From positions 45,152 to 65,151 of the forward strand of contig MEDY01000212.1 of NCBI GenBank assembly GCA_001724265.1: DNA of 20,000 nucleotides, in the 5' to 3' direction. A model generated the notes under the pieces. The model was not told the origin of the DNA. It searched no databases and worked only from the letters and a program-made list of their open reading frames with translations. Source of the DNA: Rhizaria sp. SCN 62-66. Taxonomy: Eukaryota. Both the position numbers and the translations under genes were made by a program. Every line of letters starts with the position of its first letter. Position 1 is the first letter of the stretch. Shown here one piece after another: positions 124 to 18,978 of this stretch.

Positions 124-2026
124 ATGTCTCAAGAGTCTGCTCCAGCAGCAGCAGCAGCAGCAGCAGCTGATTCGAGCGTCCCCAGTCCGTGCAAGCACGA
201 CGAAGCTCGGGACGACGCCAACAAGCAGCTGGCCGTGTGCCCCATTCTGCGCATACCGCGCTTCGACGACTGGCACCTGCACCTGCGCGACGGCGCCGCG
301 CTACCCGAGTACGTCTGGGCGTCTGCGCAGCGGTGCCGGCGAGCGCTGGTAATGCCAAACCTGGCGCCCCCCGTCACCACCACTGCGGCCGCGCTGGCCT
401 ACCGCGCGCGCATCCTCGCCGCGCTCGCCGCCGCCGCCGCGCGCCGCGGGCTGGCCGCTCCGCCGCCCTTCACGCCGCTGATGACGCTCTACTTGACGGA
501 GGCCACGACGGCGGAGGAGATCGCGCTCGCGGCCCGCTCGGGTGCGGTCGTGGCCGCGAAGCTCTACCCCGCCGGCGCCACCACCAACGCGGCCCAGGGA
601 GTGCGGGATATAGCCCGGCTGGACCCCGTGCTGCGCGCAATGGCCCGCGCAGGACTCGTGCTGTGCGTGCACGGTGAAACGACGGACCCGGCCACGGACG
701 TGTTCGATCGGGAGGCGCAGTTCATCGCCACTGTGCTCGTGCCGCTGCTGGCCCGGCACCCGCGGCTGCACGTGGTCATGGAACACGTGACCTCCGCCGC
801 CGCGGTCGCGCTCGTCGACGCTGACACAGTCCCGGCAAACACGCAGACACCAACGCAAACGCATGCAGCGGGCGCTTCAAGTGCCGGCGCAAACGCTGCT
901 TCAAGTTGTTCAAGTGTGCCTATCGCGGGGCGCGTTGCCGCGACGATCACCCCGCAACACATGCTGTTCTCGCGCAACGCGCTGTTCCTGGGCGGCAAGC
1001 TGCGTCCGCACGCCTACTGCCTACCCGTGTACAAGACGGAGCGCGACCGCTGGGCGGTGGCGGGCGCGGCCGCGGGTACCGGGGTCAGGCACCCAGAGCG
1101 GTTCTTCGCCGGGACCGACTCCGCGCCGCACGCAATAGACGCAAAATGTAAGAAAAAGCATACGACTAGCAGTTTTAAGTTGTTATATAGTCAATATCCT
1201 TGTTATATCCCTCAAAAAAATGGTTTCGCCTATCTTTAACCACCCCTCACTTCCCTCACTTGTGCCGCTTGTCTGTCCTCACTCGCGCCCGTAACCAGAG
1301 TGCTCCGCCTGCTGCGCGGGCTGCTATACGGCGCCGGATGCCGCCGCGCTGTACGCGGAGGCCTTTCTGCGCCACGCCGAGGCGCTGCTGCTGGCCGGCG
1401 ACCTCACCGCGGCAGCCACGGTGACCGTGGGCCGGTTGCGCGCCTTCCTGGCGCGGGACGGTGCCGCGTTCTACGCCCGTGCTGCCCGCGCGGCCAGAGC
1501 GGCCGCGGAGGGGACGGCAACGGAGGGCAACCCTGCTGGCGATGACAACCGCTCCAGCAGTGGCAGTGGCAGTGCGGGGGGCGCGGACCCCGCGCTGTTG
1601 GCCGCACTCGACTTGCCGCAGCACAGCACCGCGACGGCGACTGAGAACAATGACAGCAGAGACAGCAACGACGACAGCAGCGACGGGCTGGTGTTGCTGC
1701 ACTGCCGCTGCGACTGCTGCTGCTGCGGCAACGGCGGCGGAGGCGGCGGCGGCGGCCCGCGCGGGTGCCCCGCAGGCGCCCCGGGCTGCTGTCTCACGCG
1801 GGCCAACAACGAGCAGGCGCAGGCTCTACAACTGCAACAGCAGCAGCAAAGTGACTACAACGACGATGCGGCGGCGGTGACAGTGCGGATGGCGGCGGCA
1901 ATGGCGGTGCGCCTGCGGTGGACACACGCCGCACACGTCACAGAGTGCGCAGAAGGCAGAAAGGTCTCCGAGTGCACAGAAGTAACTCTCGGGAGCAGCG
2001 GCGTTAGCAGCGTTGGTAAGCAGTGA
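124..2026 (+). CDS. URA4: Class II (E. coli PyrC / fungal URA4 / plant-type) dihydroorotase. Exons 124-1147 and 1299-2026; ~583 aa if the TAG at the splice junction (codon 342) is read as sense; ends TGA
   Basis: Exon 1 has DWHLHLRDG, VMPNL, AKLYPAGATTN (carbamylated Lys), VHGE, MEHVT, ATITPQH, YCLPVYK and GTDSAPH. After the intron the frame starting at 1301 gives CSACCAGCYTAPDAAALYAEAF...LRAFLARDGAAFY, matching E. coli [22 protein letters not shown]...FEAFCSVNGPQFY, and joins ORF 1421..2026. Confidence 0.93.
1148..1298 (+). other. Spliceosomal intron (151 nt, phase 1) in dihydroorotase
   Basis: Donor GTAAGA at 1148, an abrupt AT-rich interior, a pyrimidine tract at ~1230-1290 and acceptor CAG at 1296-1298. 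An in-frame TAA at 1292 excludes upstream acceptors; using AG 1299-1300 would shift the frame. Confidence 0.85.
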
Positions 2027-2901: not shown

Positions 2902-3748
2902 GGGCCAGTGCAACTCAAGCAATGCTAACTTCAACGAGTCTGTTGCTGCTAAACAGCAAGCAAATGAGAGGTGGAGTGAGAACAAGGACGAGATTGCAAG
3001 AGAATATTAGCACGCAGAAAAACGGGGTGAAACTTCGGCGGGAATTTTACAGGGTTACCGGACACTGCAGAAGATATAAAATCATGAACAAAATGGTGCG
3101 ATCGTAAATCGTATGGGAGTTTCCAAATCACGACTATTTAATGTCCAAACAGGCGAGAAATCTCAGCACTAATCCCCCTTTTTTAGCGGACTGGGGTTGC
3201 TCCGAAGAGGAATTGCGTGCAGTGTGCGATTGTATGCAGCAAATCGGTCGTCAAAGAGTCTGAAACTCATTTCGTTATTATTGAACGTACCTTCTCTGTA
3301 TTATATTTTTGAGAATGTTTCTCAATTTCTTGGCTGCATGCACTCTCGCCCCTAGCTCGACTGCGCTTCGAAGCGCTTAAAACAAAGGGTCATATCCCGC
3401 TCTCTACCAACATTGCCAAGTATTTGTTGTCCACCGCGCAGTTTTAGTATTTTTTATTTTCACCTGTTTCCTACTGCGAGTTTGTTTCACGCTGAACTCA
3501 CACCGCGACGACATATTACTGCGTTCGTCGCGCCGACAACGCAATCCTGTTCAGCAATGTCACGCACGCATAACTCAACAGACTTTGCAGCAGCCTAAAC
3601 AAATCATCATCGTATAGCTTCAACTACTGCTGTTGATGCTGTCGTTCCGAATGTACCGCGTGCCAAGTAGTTTCGGCCCCTCTCCAACAACAGCTTTACT
3701 AGTTTCATCGGCGACAACATGTGACAACGACGACAGTGACAGACAGCA

Positions 3749-4095
3749 ATGACGGCTCTCACGACGGAAGCGACAAGTGTATGTATGCCTTGGGGTCTCA
3801 AGTTAGCACTAGTAACAAACAGCCTCACTCCGCACATGCGCACGCACACGGGCGAGAAGCCCTATTTGTGCTCTTATGAAGGTTGTGGTAGTAGGTTCAC
3901 TATGAAGGGCTACCTTTACGTACACACCCGCACGCTCACGGACGAGAAGCTTTATCAGTGCGAGCGATGCCAGTTGTGATTTGGCCTGTTAGAGTTGGCC
4001 AACATCAGCACCTTAAGCGCCACATGATGCGGATTCACAAACTCGCCAGTAGCGCTGCCGCTGGCGCTGACTCTGACTCTTGTGAGCTCTTGTGA
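3749..4095 (+). pseudogene. Decayed C2H2 (Kruppel-type) zinc-finger gene remnant with about three fingers
   Basis: [50 protein letters not shown], then QHQHLKRHMMRIH in another frame. Lesions: the last His of finger 2 is Leu, the linker is TDEKLY, there is a TGA at 3977-3979, a 14-nt frameshifting insertion at 3986-3999, and several stops upstream in frame. Confidence 0.8.
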
Positions 4096-5115
4096 GCTCT
4101 GTGACTTACCACCGTCGTTGCAGTGGTTGTCCAAAGCCTCCACAAGTTTGCAACGCACATGTTGTTGATGTTCGCGCTTTACACGTCCGATTGGCTTCGC
4201 TCGCTATGCTCTTGCGAAGATATATAGCTTCTACTGGAATAATAAATATGTCCATGGTTAATTTCACCGTTAAAAGGTGTATCAACTTTAAAATTAGCGC
4301 TACAACAAGAGATTGTACTTCGTTTTATCTTGTTTTATCCAAAACTCCCCGTCCAAATGCGTTTGTGGTTTAAAAGTTTTCTGGTGACTGGTGACTGTGA
4401 TCAGCCCGATCGCGATTCGATCGACTCGCAGTGAGAATGTGGTCGGCGAAAACGGAGTATTGGCGCTGTACCGGATCGACACGGCGGTTCAATTTCAATT
4501 TTCCAACTAGAATAGTTGCTTTACTACTCAACTGTAATTTATTTCTTGTGCGGCGCTATGTGCTGTCTGCGCTGGACAACCGGATGTTAAGCGATGATGG
4601 CAACACGGTGGATGCGTTCAAACCGCCCCTTGACCGCGCCCGCCGCATCCCTATTCTCCAGCGCAGCTACTCATCCTTGTGCAGCGTTGCCACCGCGCGT
4701 ATGCACCTCTCGCGCAAGTTTGTGGCTGTTTGCGTCTGATGCACACGCCACGGCACTTGTCCGGAGTCGCTGGAGAGGTGGCTCTGCCACCCCCTGTCCT
4801 TCTCCCCTCGCCAGGTGGCCGCAACGCATACTAGACGCCGTGAAATCGCGTTTGATAGCCGCGTTTCATTTTTCTTGTCGCGAATCGCTCTCTTAATTAT
4901 TCCTGTCAGCTGTTTTTACTTCTAATCTCTCAAAACTCACGCACATATCCTCACAATTCTCCTCTCTTCTTCCCTTCCCTCTTAACTTTTAAAATTCAAA
5001 CAGCCTCTTTCTTTTTCGACAACAAGGCCCACCAAGCTTTGTTGCTGTTTCTTCTCCTCCGCCCCCCGCGTTGCCCGCTCACCACGCCCTGCGCGCCCCC
5101 GCCGGAGCCCCGCCG

Positions 5116-8100
5116 ATGAGCCGCCCCGCGTCCGCGTCGTCCGCTGCGGCCGACGCCCGCGACCGCGTACGCTCGCTCATGGTCGCCGACGACCTGCCCG
5201 CCTACCACCTCTCCATCGCCTCCATCGAGCTGGGACTGGGCGTCTCCGTCAAGCGCGGTCTCAGCGCCGAGCAGGTCGCCACGAACCGGCTCAAGTACGG
5301 CTCCAACCGTCTGCGCGAGCCCAAACAGCTTCACCCGGTGCTCATGTTCCTCAAGCACATGGTCAACCCGATCACCTTCATCCTCTACTGCGTCTTCATC
5401 ATCCAGGTACGAGTCCACCAATGTTGTTGCCTATAATATATGTTCATTATATTTATATGTATTTTTGCTATCTTACTATATCATCACGCTTTTATTTTAA
5501 ATAGCCCTCTCTCCTCATGATCTCCCCGCAATATATCCTCTTGTGCTGCTCCTCACTACCAGGCCGTGTCCAACGAATGGATCGACGCAGGCGTGGTGAT
5601 GTTCCTCATCGTCGCCAACGCGATCCTGGGCTTTGTCCAGGAGCTTAAGTCGGTGATGTCGCTCGCGGCGCTGCAGTCGATGTCGTCGCCCGTGGCCACA
5701 GTAATGCGCGACGGCGCGTCGATGGCCGTGGACATCAACGACATCGTCGTCGGCGACGTCGTGCTGCTCAAGCAGGGCGACCAGGTCCCCGCCGACCTCC
5801 GCGTCGCGCAGGCGCTCAACCTCGAGGTCGACGAAGCGCTGCTGACGGGCGAGTCGGTGCCGATCTTCAAGCACACGGACCCACTGCCGCTGCCCAAGCA
5901 GGAGCGCGCCGACCTCATCGTCTCGGTCGCGCTCGGCGACCGTAGCAACATGGCCTTCCGGCAGACCACGGTCGTGGCCGGCACGGGTGTGGGCGTCGTC
6001 GTCGCGGTCGGCGAGGCCACCAAGGTGGGCCAGCTCTCGGAGCGGCTCCTCAGCGCGGGCAACCCCAAGACGCCGCTGGAGCGCAAGATGGCCATCTTCA
6101 TGTACTCGGTCTTCGGCATGGCCATCATCCTCGCCATCATCATCTTCGGCGTCACCGGCTTCACCTTCGAGCACGACACGATCGTCTACGCCTCGGCCAC
6201 CGGCATCGCGATCCTGCCCGAAAGTCTCATCGCCGTCGTCACCGTCACGCTCTCGCTGGCGACGTCGCGCATGGCGGCCCGCAAGGCCATCGTGCGCAAG
6301 ATGGGCGCCGTCGAGATCCTCGGCAACGTCACCAACATCTGCTCCGACAAGACCGGCACGCTCACGGAGGGCAAGATGGTCGTCAAGCGCTTCTGGCCCG
6401 TCGGCTCCAAGTACATCTACCACGTCACGGGTGGCACCATGGACGCCACCGGCGGCTTCGGCCTCGAGCACGACCCCACGGACCCAGACGCGCCGCCCGT
6501 CGAGCCGGGCCGCCGCTCCTCGCGCGCCGCCTCCCGGGCCTCGCGCGCGGGCACACGCGCCTCGCGCGCCGCCTCGGGCACCGGCGCCGCCTCTGTCGGC
6601 TCTATTGGTGGGACTGTCTCCGGCCGCCCCAGCACGGCCACGGGCGAGTCGCGGCGCTTCCGCGCGCCGTCGTACGCGCACACGGTGGCCAAGGTCTCGC
6701 AGGGGCTGCCCGAGTCTGACTTCTCGGCGGTGCAGAAGGCGGCCGAGGAGCTAGCGCTGGTCTGCGCGATGTGCAACAACACGCAGCTGCAGCACGACGA
6801 GGAGGAGGACAAGCTCATCGGCACCGGCAACCCCACGGAGCTGGCGCTGCAGGTGCTCGCGTACAAGCTGCAGAGGTCCCCTTACTACTTCGAGGAGGAC
6901 GAGGGCTGGCTAAAGTGCGGCCAGTGGGCCTTCGACTCGGGCGTCAAGTGCATGTCGGTCGGCCTCGTGCGCGACGCCGAGCTCAAGGAGGAGGACGAGG
7001 CCTCGGGCCGTGAGGACGGCGACAACTCGCTCGAGTGCAAGGTGCTGCTCAAGGGCGCGCCCGAGGCCGTGCTGCCCAAGTGCCCAGGCGCCAACGTCGA
7101 CGAAGTCATGGCCAAGGTCGCTCACCTTGCCGGCCAGGGCTACCGCGTGCTGGCCTGCGCCGCGCGCGACGACCTCAGGCTGGCCGACCGCGACGGCGCG
7201 CGTCTGCATGACATCGACCGGCACCTGGCCGAGTCCAACATGCGCTTCGTGGGGCTTGTCGTGGTGTACGACCCGCCGCGCGAGGAGTCGTACGTGGCCG
7301 TGCGCAAGTGCAAGGAGGCGGGCGTGACGTTCCACATGGTGACGGGCGACCACCACGGCACGGCCGAGGCGATCGCGCGCAAGCTGGGCATCCTGGAGGA
7401 CCACCAGGGCCGCGACCGCGTCACCACGGGGCCAGTGTTCGATGCCATGACGGAGGAGATGATCGACCTGATGGAGGAGCTGCCGCTGGTTATCGCACGC
7501 TGCTCGCCCGAGAGCAAGGTCAAGATGGTCGAGGCGCTGCACAGGCGCCGCCGCATCGTGGCCATGACCGGCGACGGCATCAATGACGCGCCCGCGATCA
7601 AGATCGCCGACGTGGGCGCTTGCATGGGCATCGCGGGCACGGACGTCACCAAGGGCGCCGCCGACATCGTGCTGGCCGACGACAATATCGCGACGCTGGT
7701 CAACGCCGTCGAAGAGGGCCGCCACGTCGCCGCCTCGATCCGCAAGTTCATCGTGCACCTGCTTACGTCCAACATCGCCGAAGTGATCGTGCTCATGATC
7801 GGGCTCGCGCTGCGCGACGACAACAACGAGGTCGTTTTCCCGCTCTCCCCGCTGCAGATCCTCTGGGTCAACATGTTCACGTCGACACCCCCCGCCATCG
7901 GTCTGTCGCTGGACGAGAAGAACCCTGCGCTGATGCAGCAGCCGCCGGACCACCGGCCTCTCTTTTCGCTCGAGGTCATGACGGACCAGTTCATCTACGG
8001 CATCATTCTCGGCGGCCTCACCTTCGGCGGCTACCTCGTCGTTATCTTCGGCTTCGGCGATGGCGAGCTGGGCACCCACTGCAACAAGACCTCCGGCGAG

Positions 8101-8535
8101 CACACGTGCCACCTGGTGTGGACGGCGCGCACGACGGCCTTCGCGACGCTCAACACGCTACTGCTCTTCCACGGCTACGTGTGCCGCGATCCGCGGCAGA
8201 GCGTGTTCGCGCGCTCCTGGCTCAGCAACAAGGTGCTCCTGTGGTCTCTCATCGTGGGCTTCGCGCTGCTCATGCCCGTCATCTACATCCCGGGCGTCGC
8301 GCGCACGCTCTTCCGCCACGCCTACATCTCCTGGGAGTGGGTCATCGTGCTCGTCTGCATCGTCCTGCACCTGCTGCTCACCGATCTGTACAAGTTCGTC
8401 AAGCGCCAGCTCTACGGCGAGAACCACTGGGAGGCCGACGGCGGCCGCGCCAGCGCCGGCATCAAGGGCGGCAGCCGCGGCGCGCGCACCGTCATCACCG
8501 AGGACGGCGGCCGCATCGAAATGATTCCCGTCTAA
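5116..8535 (+). CDS. ENA1: P-type ATPase, type IID (ENA, Na+/K+ efflux). Exons 5116-5406 and 5563-8535; ~1087 aa; ends TAA
   Basis: GLSAEQV...YGSNRL, LEVDEALLTGES, LPESL, ICSDKTGTLTEGKM (phospho-Asp; ENA-type GKM), GNPTE, FDSGVKCMS, KGAPE, MVTGDH, LPLVIARCSPESKVKMVEALHRR, AMTGDGINDAP, FPLSPLQILWVNMFTSTPPAIGLSLD. The LPLVIARCSP...ALHRR segment is characteristic of yeast ENA1 and relatives. The start could alternatively be ATG 5179. Confidence 0.92.
5407..5562 (+). other. Spliceosomal intron (156 nt, phase 0) in the ENA ATPase
   Basis: CAG|GTACGA donor, AT-rich interior, pyrimidine tract and CAG|GCC acceptor. Splicing joins ...YCVFIIQ to AVSNEWIDAGVV..., the expected TM1-TM2 region. Confidence 0.92.
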
Positions 8536-10048
8536 GGCCACGTCCGAGTCCAAATCGAAGTCTAAGTCTAAGGGCCTCGCGCCGCAGTTTAAGTACCCAG
8601 ACGACGAATCGAGTCTGAGTGCTTCTCGCTTTCTTGTCGTGTTTTGGTGCTTAGTTGCTTTGTATTTTATTGTGATGTATGGTGTATTTTTATTGTTTGT
8701 TTGTGTTTTTTTTCGATTTCGTTTTTCAACGTTATGTTCTGGTTTAGATTTCGTTTTGATGCTTGTTTGTGACGATGATGGGGGAAAGACAGTCTGAAAA
8801 CCCTCGATCGAGGTGAGAATGCAAGCGTATCATGTGTGAGTGCAAAATACTGTGTGCGTGTGAGTATAAGTGTGATTGTGTGCGATGTTATGAGCTTTTT
8901 TTAAGCTTTATCTTGAATCTGGCACGGCAGTTTTTGTGTCTTCTTTCTTCCTTTGTTCTTTTCATTCATTACGTACGTACGTCTGTGTTGACTTTTCAGC
9001 TCTTTTTGTGATTTGCCAACGTGTGCTAGCCAACTTTCCTTCCCTTTGCGCCTCCGTGAAAGCCAATAACTTCGCACAATTTATACGAAACGAGAAACAA
9101 TCATTCTAACAACAACTGTAACAATGTGCCCATTGAAATAGCTGGCATAGTAACACTGCCGTTACTGCTGTGCTTTCTGCCCGCAGTCGTTCACAATTGT
9201 TGGGATTGCAGTCAGCTTAGAACAAAGTTTCTGTAGTTGTTTCTGCATCTCATTCGTTTTTGAACACTTTCCTCGCGCCTTCACATTAACCCGCACACAC
9301 CTGCGCACGCACTCATGTATACGCTCCGTTTTACGCTCGCACTTGTTTGCTGTCGCTGCTGTTGATAATGCTAATGGTGATAATGTTGTTTGTGCTAATC
9401 GTGCTCGTTGTCTTGTAAAATCTCGAAGTGCTACTGCTGATCTTGCTTTAGTTCATTGAACTCTTCGTGTTTCATATTTCAAACGACTCAGCTATGACTT
9501 ATAGTTAATCCTAATAATGATTACTACAACTAACAATATTACTGCTATATAACGTGGATAAATACAAATTTGCTTTGCTTTTATTCTTTGAATAACATTA
9601 CAGTTGCAACAAGACGTCACACTCAGTCACAGTATCGATGTGAGAGCAGTTGGCGTTTGCAAAAAAAGATCTAGATAGAATCCGAAATTTGTTCTAAGTA
9701 ATCGTTGTGATTGTGCGCTAATAAATCACATTAACGCACAATATGTCTGTACCTGAGCGTTTTGAGATGGGCACCCTACGGGCACCGGAAGCTTCTCTTC
9801 TTATCGCGATTCGTTTAATTTAGATGAGACAGTTCAAAGTTACAGTACTTCAGTGTTAAACTAATATAAAAAGACAACGCGGTGTCTATCCAGTCATAAG
9901 CCTTAGGGTGCCCATCTCAAAACGCACAGGTACAATCTATTGCAGTCGCATAGGCAACCCCATGAAAAGCTGTGTTGTTGACACAGCGGTTGTCGTTGCT
10001 GCTGTAGCTCTTGTAGCTCTGCGCACAGGCACAGCCTCAGAAGCTGTC

Positions 10049-12295
10049 TCACTGCATGAGGAAGGCGACGATGCCGGTATCGAAGCCGCAGCCGCCACAG
10101 CCGGCCCGCAGCCCCGCCTCGGCCGCCGGGCGCCCCCAGGGGCCCGCAGCAGAAGGAGCATTGGTACTCGCACCAGCACTAGCATTTGCACTCGAGTAGA
10201 CTGCGGCCACGGCGGGGGCCTGGGCGAACACAGGGGCCAACGCACAGCACCCTTTGTTGCTCTGAGGCAACTGCGACTGCGACTGGGCGTGCGCGTTGTG
10301 CGCTGCGTAGACGGCCCCCAGCAGAGCCCGCGTCCGCGCCGCCGCCGCGGCCACGGCCGGACACGAGCACAGCAGAGCCAACGCAGCGACACCCACCGCA
10401 CCAGGCCCAGACGCAGACGCAGAGTCTGTCGGCAGCCAGAGGGGCGACTGGGGGCCGGCCTTGGCGGCGGCCGCGGCGGCTGCGGCGACGGAGACGGCGT
10501 CAGGCACCTCCGCGATGTGCGCCCCCGCCTCGCAGCCGCAAGCCATGCTGCGACTGCCAGCGCTGGCTTCAGCGGTGTTGTTTGCGATGTGAGTATTACT
10601 CGCGAGTGCGAGTGCTAGGGAGCAGTGGCAGGAGCAGCAGCCGAGCCAGAGCAGAGGCACCGCGCCGTCCGAAGTTAGGCCGCCGCCACCCCGTGTCGCG
10701 GAAGTTAGGCCGCGCGGTTCGAGCACGCCCGTCGGGCACAGCGGGCACTGCGACAGCGCGGCGGCCACGGCGGCGGCGGCGGCGGGCGCGGGGCCCGGGG
10801 CAGCGCTCTCGGCCACGGACAGCAGCGCAGCGGCGTCAGCAGCAGCCTCAGCGGCGGCCGCAGCCCCCGCGGCGGCCTCGGCCTCGGCAGCCACCCACCA
10901 ATCGCAGTCGCTGTCGCCGGTCTGCGCATTGGCGTTCGTGTTAGCTGTGCCATTGTAGTACGCAGCGGCAGCCTCCTCGTCGAATGCTTGTTGCTGCTGC
11001 TGTTGTTGCTGTTGTTGGTTATGCAGCCACTGCTGTTGTTGTTGCCGTTGCTGGCTCTAATCTTCGTCCCGACATGCCTGGCCGACGCCGCCATACGCGG
11101 CAGCAGCACCGCCGCGACTGTACCCGTCGCCGTCGCCGTCGATGGCGGCCGCGACGGCCGACTGGACCTCAGCCAGTTCCTCGCGGAGGCTCTCAGCCAG
11201 CAGCGCGTCCTTCATCGCCAGCATGATGTCCACCATGTCCTCGCTCGTCAGCACGCTGCCAGTGCTGTCAGGGGCGGCGGCGGCGGCGGCGGCGAGACCT
11301 GTGAGGATCAGAGACGAGCCGTCGTCGCACATGCTCCCAGTGTTGTGACCAGACTGCGCCTGCGCCTGTGTCTGTCGGTCCGGCGACGCTCGGGCTGAGG
11401 CCTGCGCCGAGGCAGTGCGGGAGATGGCGGCGACGGCGTTGCGGCGGTACCACTGGAGGAACCACTCCTTGCTGTTGCCGCCGGAGCTGCTGCGCGTCAC
11501 CGCGGCGTTGTGGCGGCTGCTGTCGTCGTCGTCGCCCATCGCGGGGCTGCACGTAGTACCGCCGAGGCTGGTGACGGCGGCGGTGGGGACGCGTGACAGC
11601 ACCGCCGGCAGTCCGAAGCCGGGAAACGACGACGAGGATGAGGACGAGAGCGACGAGGAGGATGAGGGCGTTGTTGTGATGGGAGACGAGCCAGAGCTGG
11701 AGCCGGCGCTGGCACTGGGGCCGAAAATGGAGCCGAAGCTAGCGTTGGTGCTGGCAATAGCCGCAGCGTTGGAGTTAGCGTTGCTGCCGAAAGGGGTCGA
11801 GAAACCTTGCTGTGGAGCTGTACGGGCTGCGTTAGGCGTCATCGGGAACGACGCGATAGTAGCAGCAGCGCCGCTGTTGCTGCTGCTTGTGCTGAGGGCG
11901 GACTGAATGATGCCATGGAAGGCGGAGGCCATGCTGGCAGCGGCGCGACGGGCACTCAAGCGGCCGGCGGGAGCACTGCCACCGCAGCTGCCGGCGTGAA
12001 CGTCGGCGGTGTTGCCGTTCCCGGTGAGCCCCAGACCAAGGCCGAGCACGAGGGCGTTCTCGTTGAAGCAGCTGTCGTCGTCGTCGTCGTCGTCGTTGCC
12101 GTCCTGGCCGTCGCCGTTGCTGGCGTTCGAGCCGCACGAGGAGCCGCGGATGCGGGTAAGGATCTCGGAGCGGTTTGCGCGTACGAGGTCGGCACAACGC
12201 GACATCATGCTCGCCTTAATCGACTCGCGCGTGCTCAAACCACGCGCCTTGGCCGCCGCGAGAGACGCGCCGGGAGACGGGCGGGGACGGAACAT
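10049..12295 (-). CDS. RPAIN: RPA-interacting protein (RPAIN/RIP), ~748 aa with long low-complexity insertions. One in-frame TAG at 11059-11057 (codon 413); ends TGA
   Basis: N-terminal RESIKASMMSRCADLVRANRSEILTRIR (RPA_interact_N-like). Middle LTSEDMVDIMLAMKDALLAESLREE. C-terminal Zn finger CPLC...CSC...LLGAVYAAH...GC...PVF...LRAGCGGCGFDTGIV (RPA_interact_C-like). ORFs 11057..12364 and 10049..10894 share a frame and only the TAG separates them. Confidence 0.8.
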
Positions 12296-13538
12296 GAGCT
12301 GGCGGAATCGACACCACGAGAATGGGAAATAGATGCGAAAATAATGAGCCGTACCGCACAACAAATTGTAAACAATAGCAAATAATCACGGAGAATATGG
12401 AAATAACATCGAAAGCGCCGTTTACGGTCGGTTATACGTTGTGACAAGTGCAAACCAGGGTCTCTAAGCCTTATTAAAAGGGCGCCAACTGAACAAACGG
12501 AAACAGCAGAATAAGCCGGAATCGACGGTTTTACAAACTCAATGGCATGAAATCGGTACGAAACGCACATATAAACGCGTATTTGTTGATTTCTAGAAGG
12601 TCTTTAAGTTTTAACACGCGAGAAAAGCATATACCCAAGAAACCTGCAGACTATCTCGACGCGACAAGATATACACAGGTAAAACCAAGCTCATAACAAA
12701 TAAAATACTGTGAAAGATTTTCAATAAATATTATTAAGCCCATGGAATTTTAATATTATTATTATTACTGCTTAGATTAATATATCTAAAAATTGTATCG
12801 TTTTTTACCATTATAAATAATTGAAAACTGTTGAAACATATATCAATAACATTTTAAATTGTTAGTTTCTTTTGATGCTTCTCTGCCAATGACAGTAAAA
12901 AGCTTTTTTTCTTATTGATCTTGGAGCAAACCAAGGTTCTGACTTGCACAAAAATGTTAAAAACTGTTAATATCAAACAAAACGTTTTAATGTATTTTAA
13001 TTCTATTTAAATAAAATTAAACACTATTACAACTTGATAATAAGATAGTCGTATAATTATAAAATTAAAACAGTATATAATATTATTTAATAATTTATGT
13101 TAAATTTCTTAACTGAATATTTGACTCTCACAGTCAAATCAAAGAGTGTAGCTCTTTAATCAAGAGGTTCGCTTGACGCATGATTAAATATGATGGATAG
13201 CAAGGAGCAGTTACCAATGGTCATAATCACAATGATAGATTTGATTGGGAAATTTTGTATTACAGTGTACGTATATGATAAGTTTGTAACAGGTTAGTTT
13301 TTTGATTCTGGGCTCATCACCACAGAAAGACAACATTCGGCAAGTCCGAAGCAACGCAAATCCGACATTATTAAAATCTCCTAAGACGTTGCCCACGACA
13401 CATATTTAGCTTCATAAAAACTAAAACTCGAATTTAATTTTAACAAATTTTGTTCGTATCTCGTATATTTTTATGAGATGACCTTACTCACTCCGCAGTG
13501 GTGTAAGAGTACTTGTTATCGCTAGAGGGCTGATTTGC

Positions 13539-16500
13539 CTAATCGGACTCAGACTTCTTGTTGGAGTCATCGTCATCATCCTTGGCAGCGGCAGCCTCCT
13601 CCTCAGCCTTCTTGGCAGCGGCAGCCTCCTCCTCAGCCTGCTTCGCAGCAGCAGCCTCCTCCTCAGCCTTCTTGGCAGCGGCAGCCTCCTCCTCAGCCTG
13701 CTTCGCAGCAGCAGCCTCCTCCTCAGCCTTCTTGGCGGCAGCGGCAGCAGCGGCAGCCGGCAGCAGCGGCAGCTTCCTCCTCGGCCTTCTTGGCGGCGGC
13801 GGCCTCAGCAGCGGCCTTGGCCTCAGCCTTAGCCTTAGCGGCGGCAGCCTCCTCCTCAGCCTTGATGCGAGCAGCCTCAGCCTCCGCAGCAGCCTTAGCC
13901 TCAGCAGCAGCCTTAGCCTTAGCCTCGGCCTCAGCCTTGGCCTTGGCGGCGGCAGCCTCCTCCTCAGCAGCGGCCTCGGCAGCCGCCTTGGCCTCGGCCT
14001 CGGCCTTGGCCTTGGCGGCCTGCTTGCGCTTCTGGCTGTTGCCGGCCTGGCCCGCCTCGGGGAACTCGTCCGCGTCCACCTTGACGTTGGCCACTCTCTC
14101 GTCAGCGCTAGCGCCAGCAGGAGCCTTGGGGTGGGCGTGAGCGTTAGAGTGCGCCGCGGGGGCGGCAGCGGCGAGGCCGTGGGCCTGGCGCATGATGCCG
14201 GCCCAGCCGCCGGGGGCCGCCGCGGCCTTGGTGGCGGGAACCACAGGCGCAGCAGCAGCAGCAGCAGCGGCGGCGGCCTTCTTGCCCTTGGGCTGCTGCT
14301 GCTGCTGCTGCTTAGGCTCAGCGGCAGAGGCAGCAGCGGCAGCGGGAGCAGCCGCCTCGGCGGCCGCCTTCTGGTTCTTCTTGTTGTTGCCATGAGTGTT
14401 CTCCTTCTTCTCAGTCGTCGTCGTCGTGGCAGCAGCAGAAGCAGCCTTGGCCTCAGCGGCGGCGGCAGCGGCGGCCTTCTTGTCGGCCGCAGCGGCGGCA
14501 GCGGCCTTCTTGTCGGCGTCAGCGGCCTTCTTGTCGGCGTCAGCGGCGGCGGCCTTGGAGGCCATCTCGTGCTGCCGGCGCTCGCGCTCCTTGTCGGCGG
14601 CGGCGGCGCGGTCCGCGGCGGCCTTGTTGGCGGCGGCCTGCGCGTCCGCGAGCGCCTTCTGCTCCGCGGCCGCGGCCTCGCGCGTGCTCTTGGCGGCGAG
14701 CGCCTGCTGGCGCTGCACAGCTGTCGCGGCGAGTCGGCGCACGACGGCCACGTCGATGGGGAAGGCCTTGGCGTCGAGGTCGGCCAGCAGCGCCGTGAAG
14801 GCCGCGAGCGACAGCGCGTCGGGGTCGCAGCGCCGCAGCACGCGCTCCAGGTATTGGCCCACCTGCGTGGCCAGCACGTGCAGCTCCTTGGCGTCGGCCG
14901 CGGCCTGCTCAGCCATCTGAGTCTCGAGCGCCAGGTGCTGCGACACGACCGAGGCCGGCAGTGACAGCGCGCGCGCGCGGGCCTGCTCCTGGCGCGCCTG
15001 CAGCGCCGCCGCGCGGCAGCCCGCGACGCGCTCGGCGAGGAACTCGTGCAGCCGCTGCGCCGACGCCAGGTGCGCGCGCAGGGCCGGGAAGAAGCCCGCG
15101 CGCTCGGCGGCGGCGGCGGTGGCGGCCTTGGCGCCCAGCTCCTGCAGGCGCAGCGCGAGCCGCTGGTAGAGAGCGATCGTGAGCCCGTGGAGCGCGTCGC
15201 CGGTCGCCTTGTCGGCGGCCAGCGCGGCGGCCGCGGCCGAGGTGTCGGCCTGGCGCGCGGAGACGTCGCCGCGCAGCGCCGCGTAGCGCGTGCGCACGGC
15301 CTCGGCGCGCGCCGCGGCCTCGCCGAGCTGGGCCTCGGCCGTGGCCAGCTCGACCTCGGCGCGCTTGAGCTGCGCCTCGAGCAGGCGCTTGCGCTCGCGC
15401 GCGTCGTCGCGCTTGGCCGTCAGCTCGGCCACGCGCGCGGCGTGCGGCGCCAGGTCGCGCTGCTGCAGCGCCTCCAGCTCGGCCGCCTTGGTCGAGGAGC
15501 CAGAGGCGAGCGCGGCGGCGCGGTCCAGCTTGGCCTGCGCCTGCGCCAGCTCGCGGCACACGCCCGTCTCGAGCAGGTGGAACGCCAGCTGCACGTCGTG
15601 CTCGTGCTTCGGCCGCTCCTGCAGCGCAGACAGCAGCGGCGCTAGCGCTGAGCTGGCCCTGGTCAGCGCCGCCGCAGAGGCCTTGTTGGCGTCCTGCAGC
15701 ACGCGAAGCGGGTCGCTGCCCGCGGTGGCGGTCGCAGCGCCCGCGGGGCCGGCGCTGGCGGCGATGTTCTGGGAGCCCCAGGGGCCCTGCGGCGCGAGGG
15801 GGGCCGCGGCGGCCGCGGCGGCGGCGGACGCGGCGGGCACGGCCTGCTTGGCGGCGAGCGCGCTGCCCAGCCCGGCGACGTGGACCGACGCCTCGCGCTG
15901 CGCGGCGAGCAGCTTGCGCACGAGCGCGGCGTAGCCCGCGGCGGCGGGCGCGGCGGCCAGCGGCTTGCCCAGCAGCACGAGCTGATCCAGCAGCCACGTC
16001 GCCTGCGCCAGCTCGCTGCCGAGCACGTTGGCGATGAGGCGCGCGAGGTTGGCCTTGGCGGTCAGGACGACGCCTGCGTGGCCGGGTGCGGCGCGCGCGG
16101 CGGGGTCAGCGCAGAGGCGGGTGAGGAAGGCCAGCGCGAGGTCGTCGAGCGCGGGCGACGACGCCAGCGCGGTCGCGATCGGCGTCGGCGCGCCCGCGGC
16201 TGCTGCGGCGGCCTGTTGGAGCTTGAGCGTCCACGTGCGGGGCAGTTCCGGGTCCGCGCGGGGGTCCCAGGCCTTAGCCGCGGCCTCCAGGGAGAAAATG
16301 TCGCTGAAGTCGGCGGGCGCGGCCACCGCAGGCAGAACGACAGCAGCAGCGGGCTTGGGGGCAGCAGCAGCGGCGGGGGCGGGGGCGGCAGCGGGCTTGG
16401 CAGCAGCGGGGGCGGCGGGGGTCTCGTCGTCGGGGATGCCGCGGATGCCGTTGTCGATAATGCGGGGGCCGTTGTTGTTGTTCTCGCCGTCCTTCTTGCC

Positions 16501-17844: not shown

Positions 17845-18978
17845 ATGAACAAGCGCAAGGGCGACCATAGCAAGTCCTCCGGCGGCGTCGTCTCGTTCGC
17901 CGACGACGCCGCGGACCCGTCCCCCTCGGCCGACTCCTACGGCGGCGCCTCCAAGGGCTCGGCCGGCACAGGCACCAAGAAGTCCCGCCCCGCCGCCGAC
18001 CCCGCTAAGGGCTTCGGCGCCGCGCTCGCCGCCATGATCAGCATCCCCACGCCCGCGCCCGCCGCTACCGCTGCCGCTGCCGCTGCTGCTGCTACCGCTA
18101 AGCCCGTTGCTGCTACCAAGCCCGCTGCTGCGCCGCAGTCTGCCGCGCGCGCCGCCTTCGCTGCCGACAAGCACATCAAGCACGCCGAGCGCCTCTCCAA
18201 GAAGGAGGCCGCTGCTGCCAGCGCCGACGCTAACGCTGACGACGCCGCTGCACCCGCGAGCATCGCCTCTGCTGCTGCGGCCGCTGCGATGGACGCGAAG
18301 CTGAGCTCGAAGCTGCAGCGGCGGCTGGCGCGCTCGGGCGTCGCGCTGCCGGGCGCGGCGGTGCCCGCAGCCGTGATCGCGCGCGCCGAGGCCGAGGCCG
18401 CCAAGGCGCTGGCCGAGGCGCAGGCGCGCGTGCGCGAGCGGCAGCGCCGCCGCCAGCGCCGCCTGCTGCTGAGCAAGGACCACATGACCGCTGACTTCAC
18501 GGACCTAGAGCGGCGGCTGCTGCGGGTGGCAACCAAGGGCGTGGTGACGCTCTTCAACGTGGTCGCGCAGCAGCAGAAGGATCTCAGCTCGCTCGAGGCC
18601 GCGGGCTCGGGCACGGCTGAGGGCATCAAAGATAAAGCGACGAAGCACCTCTCGCAGGACGGGTTCGTTGACCTGCTCAAGAAGCAGTCCGCCGCCGCCG
18701 CCGCCACCGCCGCGGCCGCCGCGGCCGCCGCCAAGAAGAAGAAGTCCACGTCCAACGGCAGCGACGACGACGACGACAGCGACAAGAGTGGCAGCGGTGA
18801 CGACGATGATGACGACGATAAGAAGGCCAAGGCCAAGAAGGGCGACGTGTCCGCGAGCAGCAAGGCAGCCGCGGCGGGGCTAAAGTGGAAGGCGCTGGAC
18901 GAAGGGTACCTCCTGGGCAAGAACAAGATGAAGGACTGGGAGGCCACCGACTCGTCCGAGGACGAGGGCTCCGACTGA
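17845..18978 (+). CDS. RRP15: Ribosomal RNA-processing protein 15 (60S biogenesis), ~377 aa; ends TGA
   Basis: Rrp15 signature ERRLLRVATKGVVTLFNVVAQQQK, then LSQDGFVDLLKK and the C-terminal WKALDEGYLLGKNKMKDWE acidic tail. The first ATG after the pyrimidine tract and CAG (17830-17832) is 17845; an upstream coding exon is not excluded. Confidence 0.92.
   Translation: MNKRKGDHSKSSGGVVSFADDAADPSPSADSYGGASKGSAGTGTKKSRPAADPAKGFGAALAAMISIPTPAPAATAAAAAAAATAKPVAATKPAAAPQSAARAAFAADKHIKHAERLSKKEAAAASADANADDAAAPASIASAAAAAAMDAKLSSKLQRRLARSGVALPGAAVPAAVIARAEAEAAKALAEAQARVRERQRRRQRRLLLSKDHMTADFTDLERRLLRVATKGVVTLFNVVAQQQKDLSSLEAAGSGTAEGIKDKATKHLSQDGFVDLLKKQSAAAAATAAAAAAAAKKKKSTSNGSDDDDDSDKSGSGDDDDDDDKKAKAKKGDVSASSKAAAAGLKWKALDEGYLLGKNKMKDWEATDSSEDEGSD

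Follow-up and report, generated by a model that had tools for sequence, protein, structure and literature searches.

The window analysed here is a single stretch of DNA, 20 kb in length, in which blocks of 65-82% GC alternate with spacers of 23-50% GC. Third codon positions inside the GC-rich blocks are as much as 90-100% GC, and this GC3 signal, together with a codon-usage score for which the clearest genes served as training set, yields a reading of seven genes. A dihydroorotase gene, the main subject of what follows, occupies positions 124-2026 of the forward strand and stops at TGA (2024-2026). It is followed on the reverse strand by a small gene, B, running from ~2940 to 2380 and ending TGA TGA, and then, again on the forward strand, by a P-type ATPase of the ENA type (Pfam E-values 2.5e-40 to 1.5e-13), with exon 1 at ~5116-5406, exon 2 at 5563-8532 and a TAA stop at 8533. 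Two reverse-strand genes come next: gene E, a low-complexity orphan (12295 to 10052, stop TGA 10051-10049), and gene F, which is long and Ala-rich (16935 to 13726, stop TGA 13725-13723). Rrp15 lies beyond them on the forward strand (~17845-18975, TGA stop; Pfam 1.5e-12), and the right end of the window holds only the tail of a reverse-strand gene, H, which stops at TAA. Scanning the two halves of gene E, gene F and gene B against Pfam at E<=10 returned nothing meaningful.

The ATPase provides a local model of intron style: its intron (5407-5562, forward strand) is 156 bases long, in phase 0, and reads GTACGA...CTCAC..CAG. The ATPase also says something about the organism. Its four closest proteins are 53-61% identical to it, while its identity to those of kinetoplastids, Andalucia, fungi and green algae is no more than ~45%; judged by these identities, the organism is from a poorly sampled lineage. 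A scan of contigs with one of the ATPase relatives (P0123) gave 71 loci, all of them prokaryotic P-type ATPases at 24-40% identity, and no eukaryotic relative. DNA nearly identical to part of the window is found in wastewater, bioreactor, activated-sludge and fuel-cell metagenome runs (17 entries from 13 studies), and in 6 of those 17 entries half or more of the sampled words of the window are present.

The spacers at 12600-13200, 8600-9900 and 3000-4600 are very AT-rich and directly adjoin exons of 70-82% GC; GC content is lowest, at 23-29%, in 12601-13200. Over the 1.6 kb from 3000 to 4600 (43-54% GC) none of the frames has a coding signal, and neither a tRNA nor an Rfam match lies there; scans of the entire 20 kb for tRNA genes and Rfam families were likewise empty.

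A dihydroorotase gene split by an intron

Exon 1 (124-1147, forward strand) consists of 1024 bases from the ATG at 124: 341 codons and, at 1147, a T that is the first base of a split codon. It ends GCA AAA T, encoding ...HAIDAK, and the sequence across the donor (1138-1153) is gac gca aaa t/gtaaga. The AT-rich intervening segment (1148-1298, 151 bases, phase 1; GTAAGA...CTCAC...CAG) has the marks of a spliceosomal intron: GT-AG ends, a 3' part rich in pyrimidines, a length and composition like those of the ATPase intron, and a position apparently shared with a metagenomic relative, P0003, that is considered below. Its terminal CAG lies at 1296-1298, and the acceptor side (1291-1306) reads gtaaccag/ag tgc tcc. 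Exon 2 (1299-2026) then supplies AG, 241 codons beginning CSACCAG, and the TGA. If the intron is spliced as drawn, the split codon formed from T (1147) and AG (1299-1300) is TAG. The original prediction had pointed to just such an in-frame TAG, created by splicing between an exon ending AAA T and one opening AG TGC TCC, and it holds up in detail, including the end coordinate of 1303 that it had given.

The reading frame of exon 2, starting from the TGC at 1301, stays open for 241 codons up to a TGA located where the GC-rich sequence stops; a frame this open arose in 193 of 20000 shuffles. The periodicity of GC3 agrees with the exons as drawn: the GC-rich third position falls on coordinates divisible by three before the intron, and on coordinates that leave a remainder of one after it. 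With 241 open codons and a GC3 of 0.8-0.9, exon 2 cannot be regarded as decayed.

What does exon 1 encode? Compared by phmmer with the class II dihydroorotases of the PDB, it matches 17 sequences at E<=0.001, in two stretches, with a best E-value of 6.8e-68; the match stops exactly at ...DSAPHA.DAK, that is, at the last residue before the junction. Its identity to thousands of proteobacterial and algal homologues is 53-59%. All of the motifs HxH, KLYPAG, VHGE, EH.T and DSAPH are present, and these we take to be the metal- and substrate-binding elements of PyrC, with the carbamylated Lys in KLYPAG. A Pfam scan of 124-1146 assigned exon 1 to no family at E<=0.01, whereas PF01979 is listed in the collection's precomputed entry; the Ala-rich composition, through its effect on score or bias, is the probable cause of the miss.

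Exon 2 carries the remainder of the enzyme. Its C-A-G loop, followed by ...LYAEAF... and ...FY, aligns directly after the Glu of two full-length homologues (P0004 and P0018; pairwise E-values 0.002 and 2e-5), and this part of the protein is joined to exon 1 solely through the TAG codon. Termination at the TAG would accordingly take away the C-A-G loop, as had been anticipated. The accompanying claim, that the C-terminal elements are clearly conserved, is apt for the first ~58 residues of exon 2, which align well, and overstated for the remaining ~180, which are of low complexity or diverged.

Set beside the known class II enzymes (PyrC, homodimeric; solved structures 4lfy, 5vgm and 1j79), the protein has the full set of exon 1 motifs, with E-values from 6.8e-68 to 1e-61. 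It differs from them in being intron-split, in having TAG at a Glu column, and in its long low-complexity inserts (at ~235-270 and across most of the last 180 residues). The exon 1 insert, at 826-930 (about residues 235-270), is made of Thr, Gln, Ala and Ser; those of exon 2, within 1500-1900, are Ser/Gly, Cys/Gly and poly-Gln stretches. Judged on sequence, the locus is an intact, intron-split, bacterial-type (class II) dihydroorotase gene of an uncultured eukaryote with GC3-rich exons.

The codon at the junction

The alignment of TAG with Glu, based in the original prediction on the E. coli enzyme, is borne out by the homologues at large. The residue that follows the conserved K is E in all 118 full-length homologues listed (P0004-P0121), and the spacing from DSAPH to C-A-G is constant across the same 118. 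(This set excludes P0002 and P0003, both of which read into introns.) Among the 120 short homologues listed, 112 have E in this column, two have Q and two V, while H, K, C and R are each found in one; one of the 112 (P0315) is counted through a shifted match only, and several of the short homologues without E are read-through or frameshifted fragments. One short homologue, P0267, has Val-Gly-Phe... after the K, as though an intron began one base earlier (in phase 0, right after K) than it does in the window and in P0003. On these alignments the dihydroorotase protein calls for a single residue at the junction, and that residue is almost certainly Glu.

Can the junction be drawn differently? 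An enumeration of all GT/GC..AG and AT..AC pairs near the intron by which exon 2 regains its frame left 1148/1298 as the sole one to preserve the spacing from DSAPH to CAG. Alternatives free of stops either lose 2-5 or more residues or gain 6 or more AT-type codons. Two further devices were considered and set aside: pairing the GT donor with the later AG in CAGAG (1299-1300) shifts the frame, and +1 frameshifting at AAA-TAG, a motif of the Euplotes type, is ruled out by exon 2 being in frame when TAG is counted as a codon. A protein search for ORFs of spliced transcripts from this organism listed 120 matches, none of them above 66% identity.

The base at 1147 can be followed beyond this assembly. 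Two gene calls of this locus, P0002 and P0242, run past the donor into the intron and have Cys (TGT) after the K. The read-through ORF containing this TGT is recorded in 4 contigs (the longest 59,252) and in 3 more (the longest 8,666); these 4 + 3 contigs represent more than one assembly, made from samples that may overlap and whose independence is unproven.

The relative P0003 (59% identity, from a metagenome contig of 3,931 bases) bears on what preceded the T. In its predicted protein, ...SAPH....K is followed by AT-type residues, after which exon 2 is read in a shifted frame. The 35 read-through codons point to an intron of ~103 bases at the same codon and in the same phase as in the window. 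The first read-through codon, a Gly, would be GGT on the premise that its second and third bases are the GT of a donor, in which case exon 1 of P0003 ends in G. On the other side, H-R-V in P0003 matches the T-R-V that the window yields from ..CCAG/AGTG.., and with an AG acceptor exon 2 would start RG. The junction codon of P0003 would then be GAG or GGG and, given the conservation of the column, GAG; the TAG of the window would therefore lie one G>T step from an ancestral Glu codon, the step having been taken in this lineage. That a G at 1147 would turn the codon into GAG had been noted at the outset, and P0003, as far as its read-through protein can tell, appears to carry that G. (A scan of metagenome DNA for P0003 gave at least 80 loci, which are bacterial pyrC at 49-55% identity; the P0003 contig itself is not among the matches listed.)

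Other TAG codons and the ends of genes

A second in-frame TAG lies inside gene E, at 11057-11059 on the reverse strand, in the context ...GAC GAA GAT TAG AGC CAG CAA.... Beyond it the frame remains open for another 335 codons, to the TGA at which AT-rich DNA starts. The gene E frame is the best-scoring of the six in 7/7 windows downstream of the TAG and in 7/8 upstream; over the downstream 335 codons it is the single stop-free frame, the other five having 3-8 stops each, and an open frame of this kind was met by chance in 46 of 20000 shuffles. The translated context, ...RDED-TAG-SQQRQQQQQ..., marks the border where an acidic run gives way to poly-Gln; it fits either and does not discriminate the residue. 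Gene E with X placed at the TAG (P0243), searched against 1.84 billion representatives, had one match, its own N-terminal half, and a search of the ESM Atlas with the C-terminal half gave no usable match. A likeness of the Cys-rich tail of gene E to RPA-interacting proteins was dropped, since Pfam at E<=10 did not support it. The TAG of gene E may be a true stop left by a recent truncation, because there are no relatives against which to check the column.

Gene F presents a different complication. Within a 30-base repeat array, a 16-base tandem duplication (13773-13758 followed by 13757-13742) breaks the frame and leads to the TGA at 13725-13723. When the duplication at 13742-13773 is discounted (and only then), an older frame is reached, which runs on into KKAEEEAAAA repeats and whose codon usage is good (score 0.61). 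In the repeat tail of this older frame stands a TAG (13539-13541, reverse strand), followed 16 codons later by TGA (13488-13490), and the AT-rich DNA beyond gene F begins only after that TGA. The TAG may be a plain stop or a third sense TAG; its place near the end of coding-like sequence fits TAG as a stop. The duplication, for its part, is either a real and recent mutation or a mis-assembly of the repeat, and its breaking of the frame means that the assembly, or the genome, has defects.

Setting the ambiguous gene F aside, six gene ends can be read in the window: four are TGA (pyrC, B, E and Rrp15), two are TAA (ATPase and H), and none is TAG. The end of the ATPase is emphatic, with three more TAA within 20 codons of the TAA at 8533 and a collapse of GC3, and TAA thus seems to act as a stop in this window. 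The absence of TAG from six ends is weak evidence for reassignment. There are 2 in-frame TAGs in the ~4,050 codons of the window, 1 of them at a conserved column; the 990-codon exon of the ATPase, gene F (1,018 codons) and Rrp15 have no in-frame TAG. Codon counts provide a further perspective: among 2,896 codons GAG occurs 140 times and CAG 87 times, with GAG making up 140 of the 154 Glu codons. In GC3-rich coding sequence with so much GAG and CAG, most random nonsense mutations would produce TAG.

Readings of TAG

The chances are about even, in our estimation, that TAG is decoded as an amino acid in this organism, most likely Glu and, as second choice, Gln; we infer both the decoding and the identity of the inserted residue. 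The scheme would be as follows: canonical GT-AG splicing would place a TAG codon where exactly one residue, nearly always Glu, is needed; TAG would be translated as an amino acid, for which Glu is the best guess; and TGA and TAA would terminate genes. If TAG means Glu, the G>T that converts GAG to TAG at the end of exon 1 would be silent, and it is for this reason that Glu is ranked first: Gln or Leu would be a replacement at a nearly invariant site (Gln is found there in 2 of the 120 short homologues listed). The more particular proposal, that UAG alone is reassigned to glutamate, with UAA and UGA retained as stops, in a wastewater or bioreactor eukaryote with GC3-rich exons, is possible and is put forward tentatively.

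Other accounts of the same junction have to be weighed against sense decoding. The simplest puts the T at 1147 down to faulty sequencing or assembly of what is really a G, the gene being an ordinary one. The attraction is plain: a single base change restores both GAG and a consensus G/GTAAG donor, P0003 appears to have G, and the contig contains a suspicious 16-base duplication in a repeat. Position 1147, however, lies in unique sequence, outside repeats, and the TGT-containing read-through ORF recurs in the 4 + 3 contigs, from more than one assembly, which makes a plain slip unlikely and the account as a whole very improbable. Of the two G>T origins proposed in the original prediction, then, mutation stays in contention, while error is less likely than was allowed there. 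Alternative or non-canonical splicing might yield an mRNA without the TAG, and stop-free pairs do exist on paper: the acceptor as drawn can be combined with a donor at 1172, 1190 or 1223, and the AG at 1299-1300 with a GC donor at 1132 or 1141. Every one of them alters the length of a stretch whose spacing is constant in 118/118 listed homologues. They are weak donors beside a strong GTAAGA, the codons that they would insert are devoid of the GC3 bias of real exons, and the intron of P0003 appears to lie at the same codon and phase; splicing of this sort is very improbable. In particular, the downstream donors at 1172 and 1223, once suggested as ways around the TAG, make poor rescues, inserting 8 and more than 20 AT-type codons, respectively, into the constant-spacing motif. 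A leaky or context-dependent read-through of a TAG stop, supplying some full-length enzyme with no true reassignment, would suit the rarity of in-frame TAGs (2 in ~4,050 codons) and the possibility that the older frame of gene F ends at TAG. Codes in which a codon is stop or sense according to context are documented (PMC4967479 and PMC12153298, in the portions available), which is in its favor. Against it stands the cost of making an essential enzyme rely on near-cognate read-through at a nearly invariant Glu. Near-cognate read-through, moreover, does not normally insert Glu, and we consider the leaky reading improbable.

The strongest competitor leaves the genetic code standard and takes the TAG at face value: a G>T change would have hit the final base of exon 1 and converted GAG into TAG, a true nonsense mutation in a copy or allele that has recently become null (in a diploid or polyploid), with the organism living on salvaged pyrimidines or on another dihydroorotase copy. 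Much is consistent with this. The corresponding base of P0003 is, as deduced from its protein, G; the change additionally weakens the -1 position of the donor; TAG is the nonsense product to be expected where GAG is the commonest Glu codon (140/154); the C-terminus of the dihydroorotase has already diverged; and three of the seven genes look damaged (the duplication in F, the TAG in E, and pyrC), as they might in a decaying or haplotype-specific region. On the other hand, the 241 open codons of exon 2 and their strong GC3 require that any inactivation be very recent, and two independent nonsense events in seven genes are many for a working genome. The variant is, besides, recorded in 4 + 3 contigs, and near-identical DNA turns up in the runs of several studies (in which the base at 1147 was not seen). 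True nonsense is thus to be taken seriously, as an unlikely but far from negligible reading.

Sense decoding of TAG has precedents of two kinds. UAG-only reassignment, with UAA and UGA as stops, is described for the sainouroid rhizarian exLh (UAG=Leu) and for Iotanema spirale (UAG=Gln) in the available part of PMC5304391, and, in that of PMC11687900, for phyllopharyngean ciliates, in which UAG means Leu or Gln. The window resembles these cases, as far as the accessible text of the two papers describes them, in that TAG occurs in frame within genes that are otherwise intact, TAA and TGA being the terminators in the same DNA; they, too, are uncultured or poorly known protists that are known through sequence data. 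It departs from them, on the same partial texts, in that the conserved site here points to Glu rather than to Leu or Gln, and in resting on two sites where the published UAG-only cases have hundreds. Ciliates usually have low GC and tiny introns, and GC3-rich exons (90-100%), introns of ~150 bases and multi-gene contigs set the window apart from them. For a non-ciliate whose exons are GC3-rich, UAG-only reassignment to Glu was not found in the literature searched, a search that was far from exhaustive.

The second kind of precedent is Glu itself. In the sections at hand, PMC12153298 gives UAR=Glu for Blastocrithidia nonstop, and PMC10553269 a ciliate in which UAA and UAG differ in the amino acid they encode. 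As in UAR=Glu codes, TAG stands in the window where relatives have Glu; in those codes TAA is sense as well, whereas here TAA appears to end the ATPase and gene H. Peritrich ciliates also have UAR=Glu (NCBI table 30), and in the ciliate that gives UAA and UAG different meanings, UAG is said to be Glu. Trypanosomatids are almost without spliceosomal introns, and the window, which has them, is unlike a trypanosomatid genome in this respect. Taken together, the GC3, the introns of ~150 bases, the multi-gene contig and the presence of Rrp15 make a ciliate, a trypanosomatid or a giant virus an unlikely source of the DNA.

What would follow from each outcome? If the TAG is a true null, a bacterivorous protist has been caught just after the loss of de novo pyrimidine synthesis. 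If TAG is instead a sense codon, proteins of this organism would be cut short in public metagenome catalogues by standard gene callers, as has happened with P0002 and P0244. Nuclear reassignments of stop codons are rare, and they bear on how a genetic code can change; UAG alone reassigned to Glu, in a genome of GC3-rich exons and ordinary introns, would, if true, be an independent case with a new meaning.
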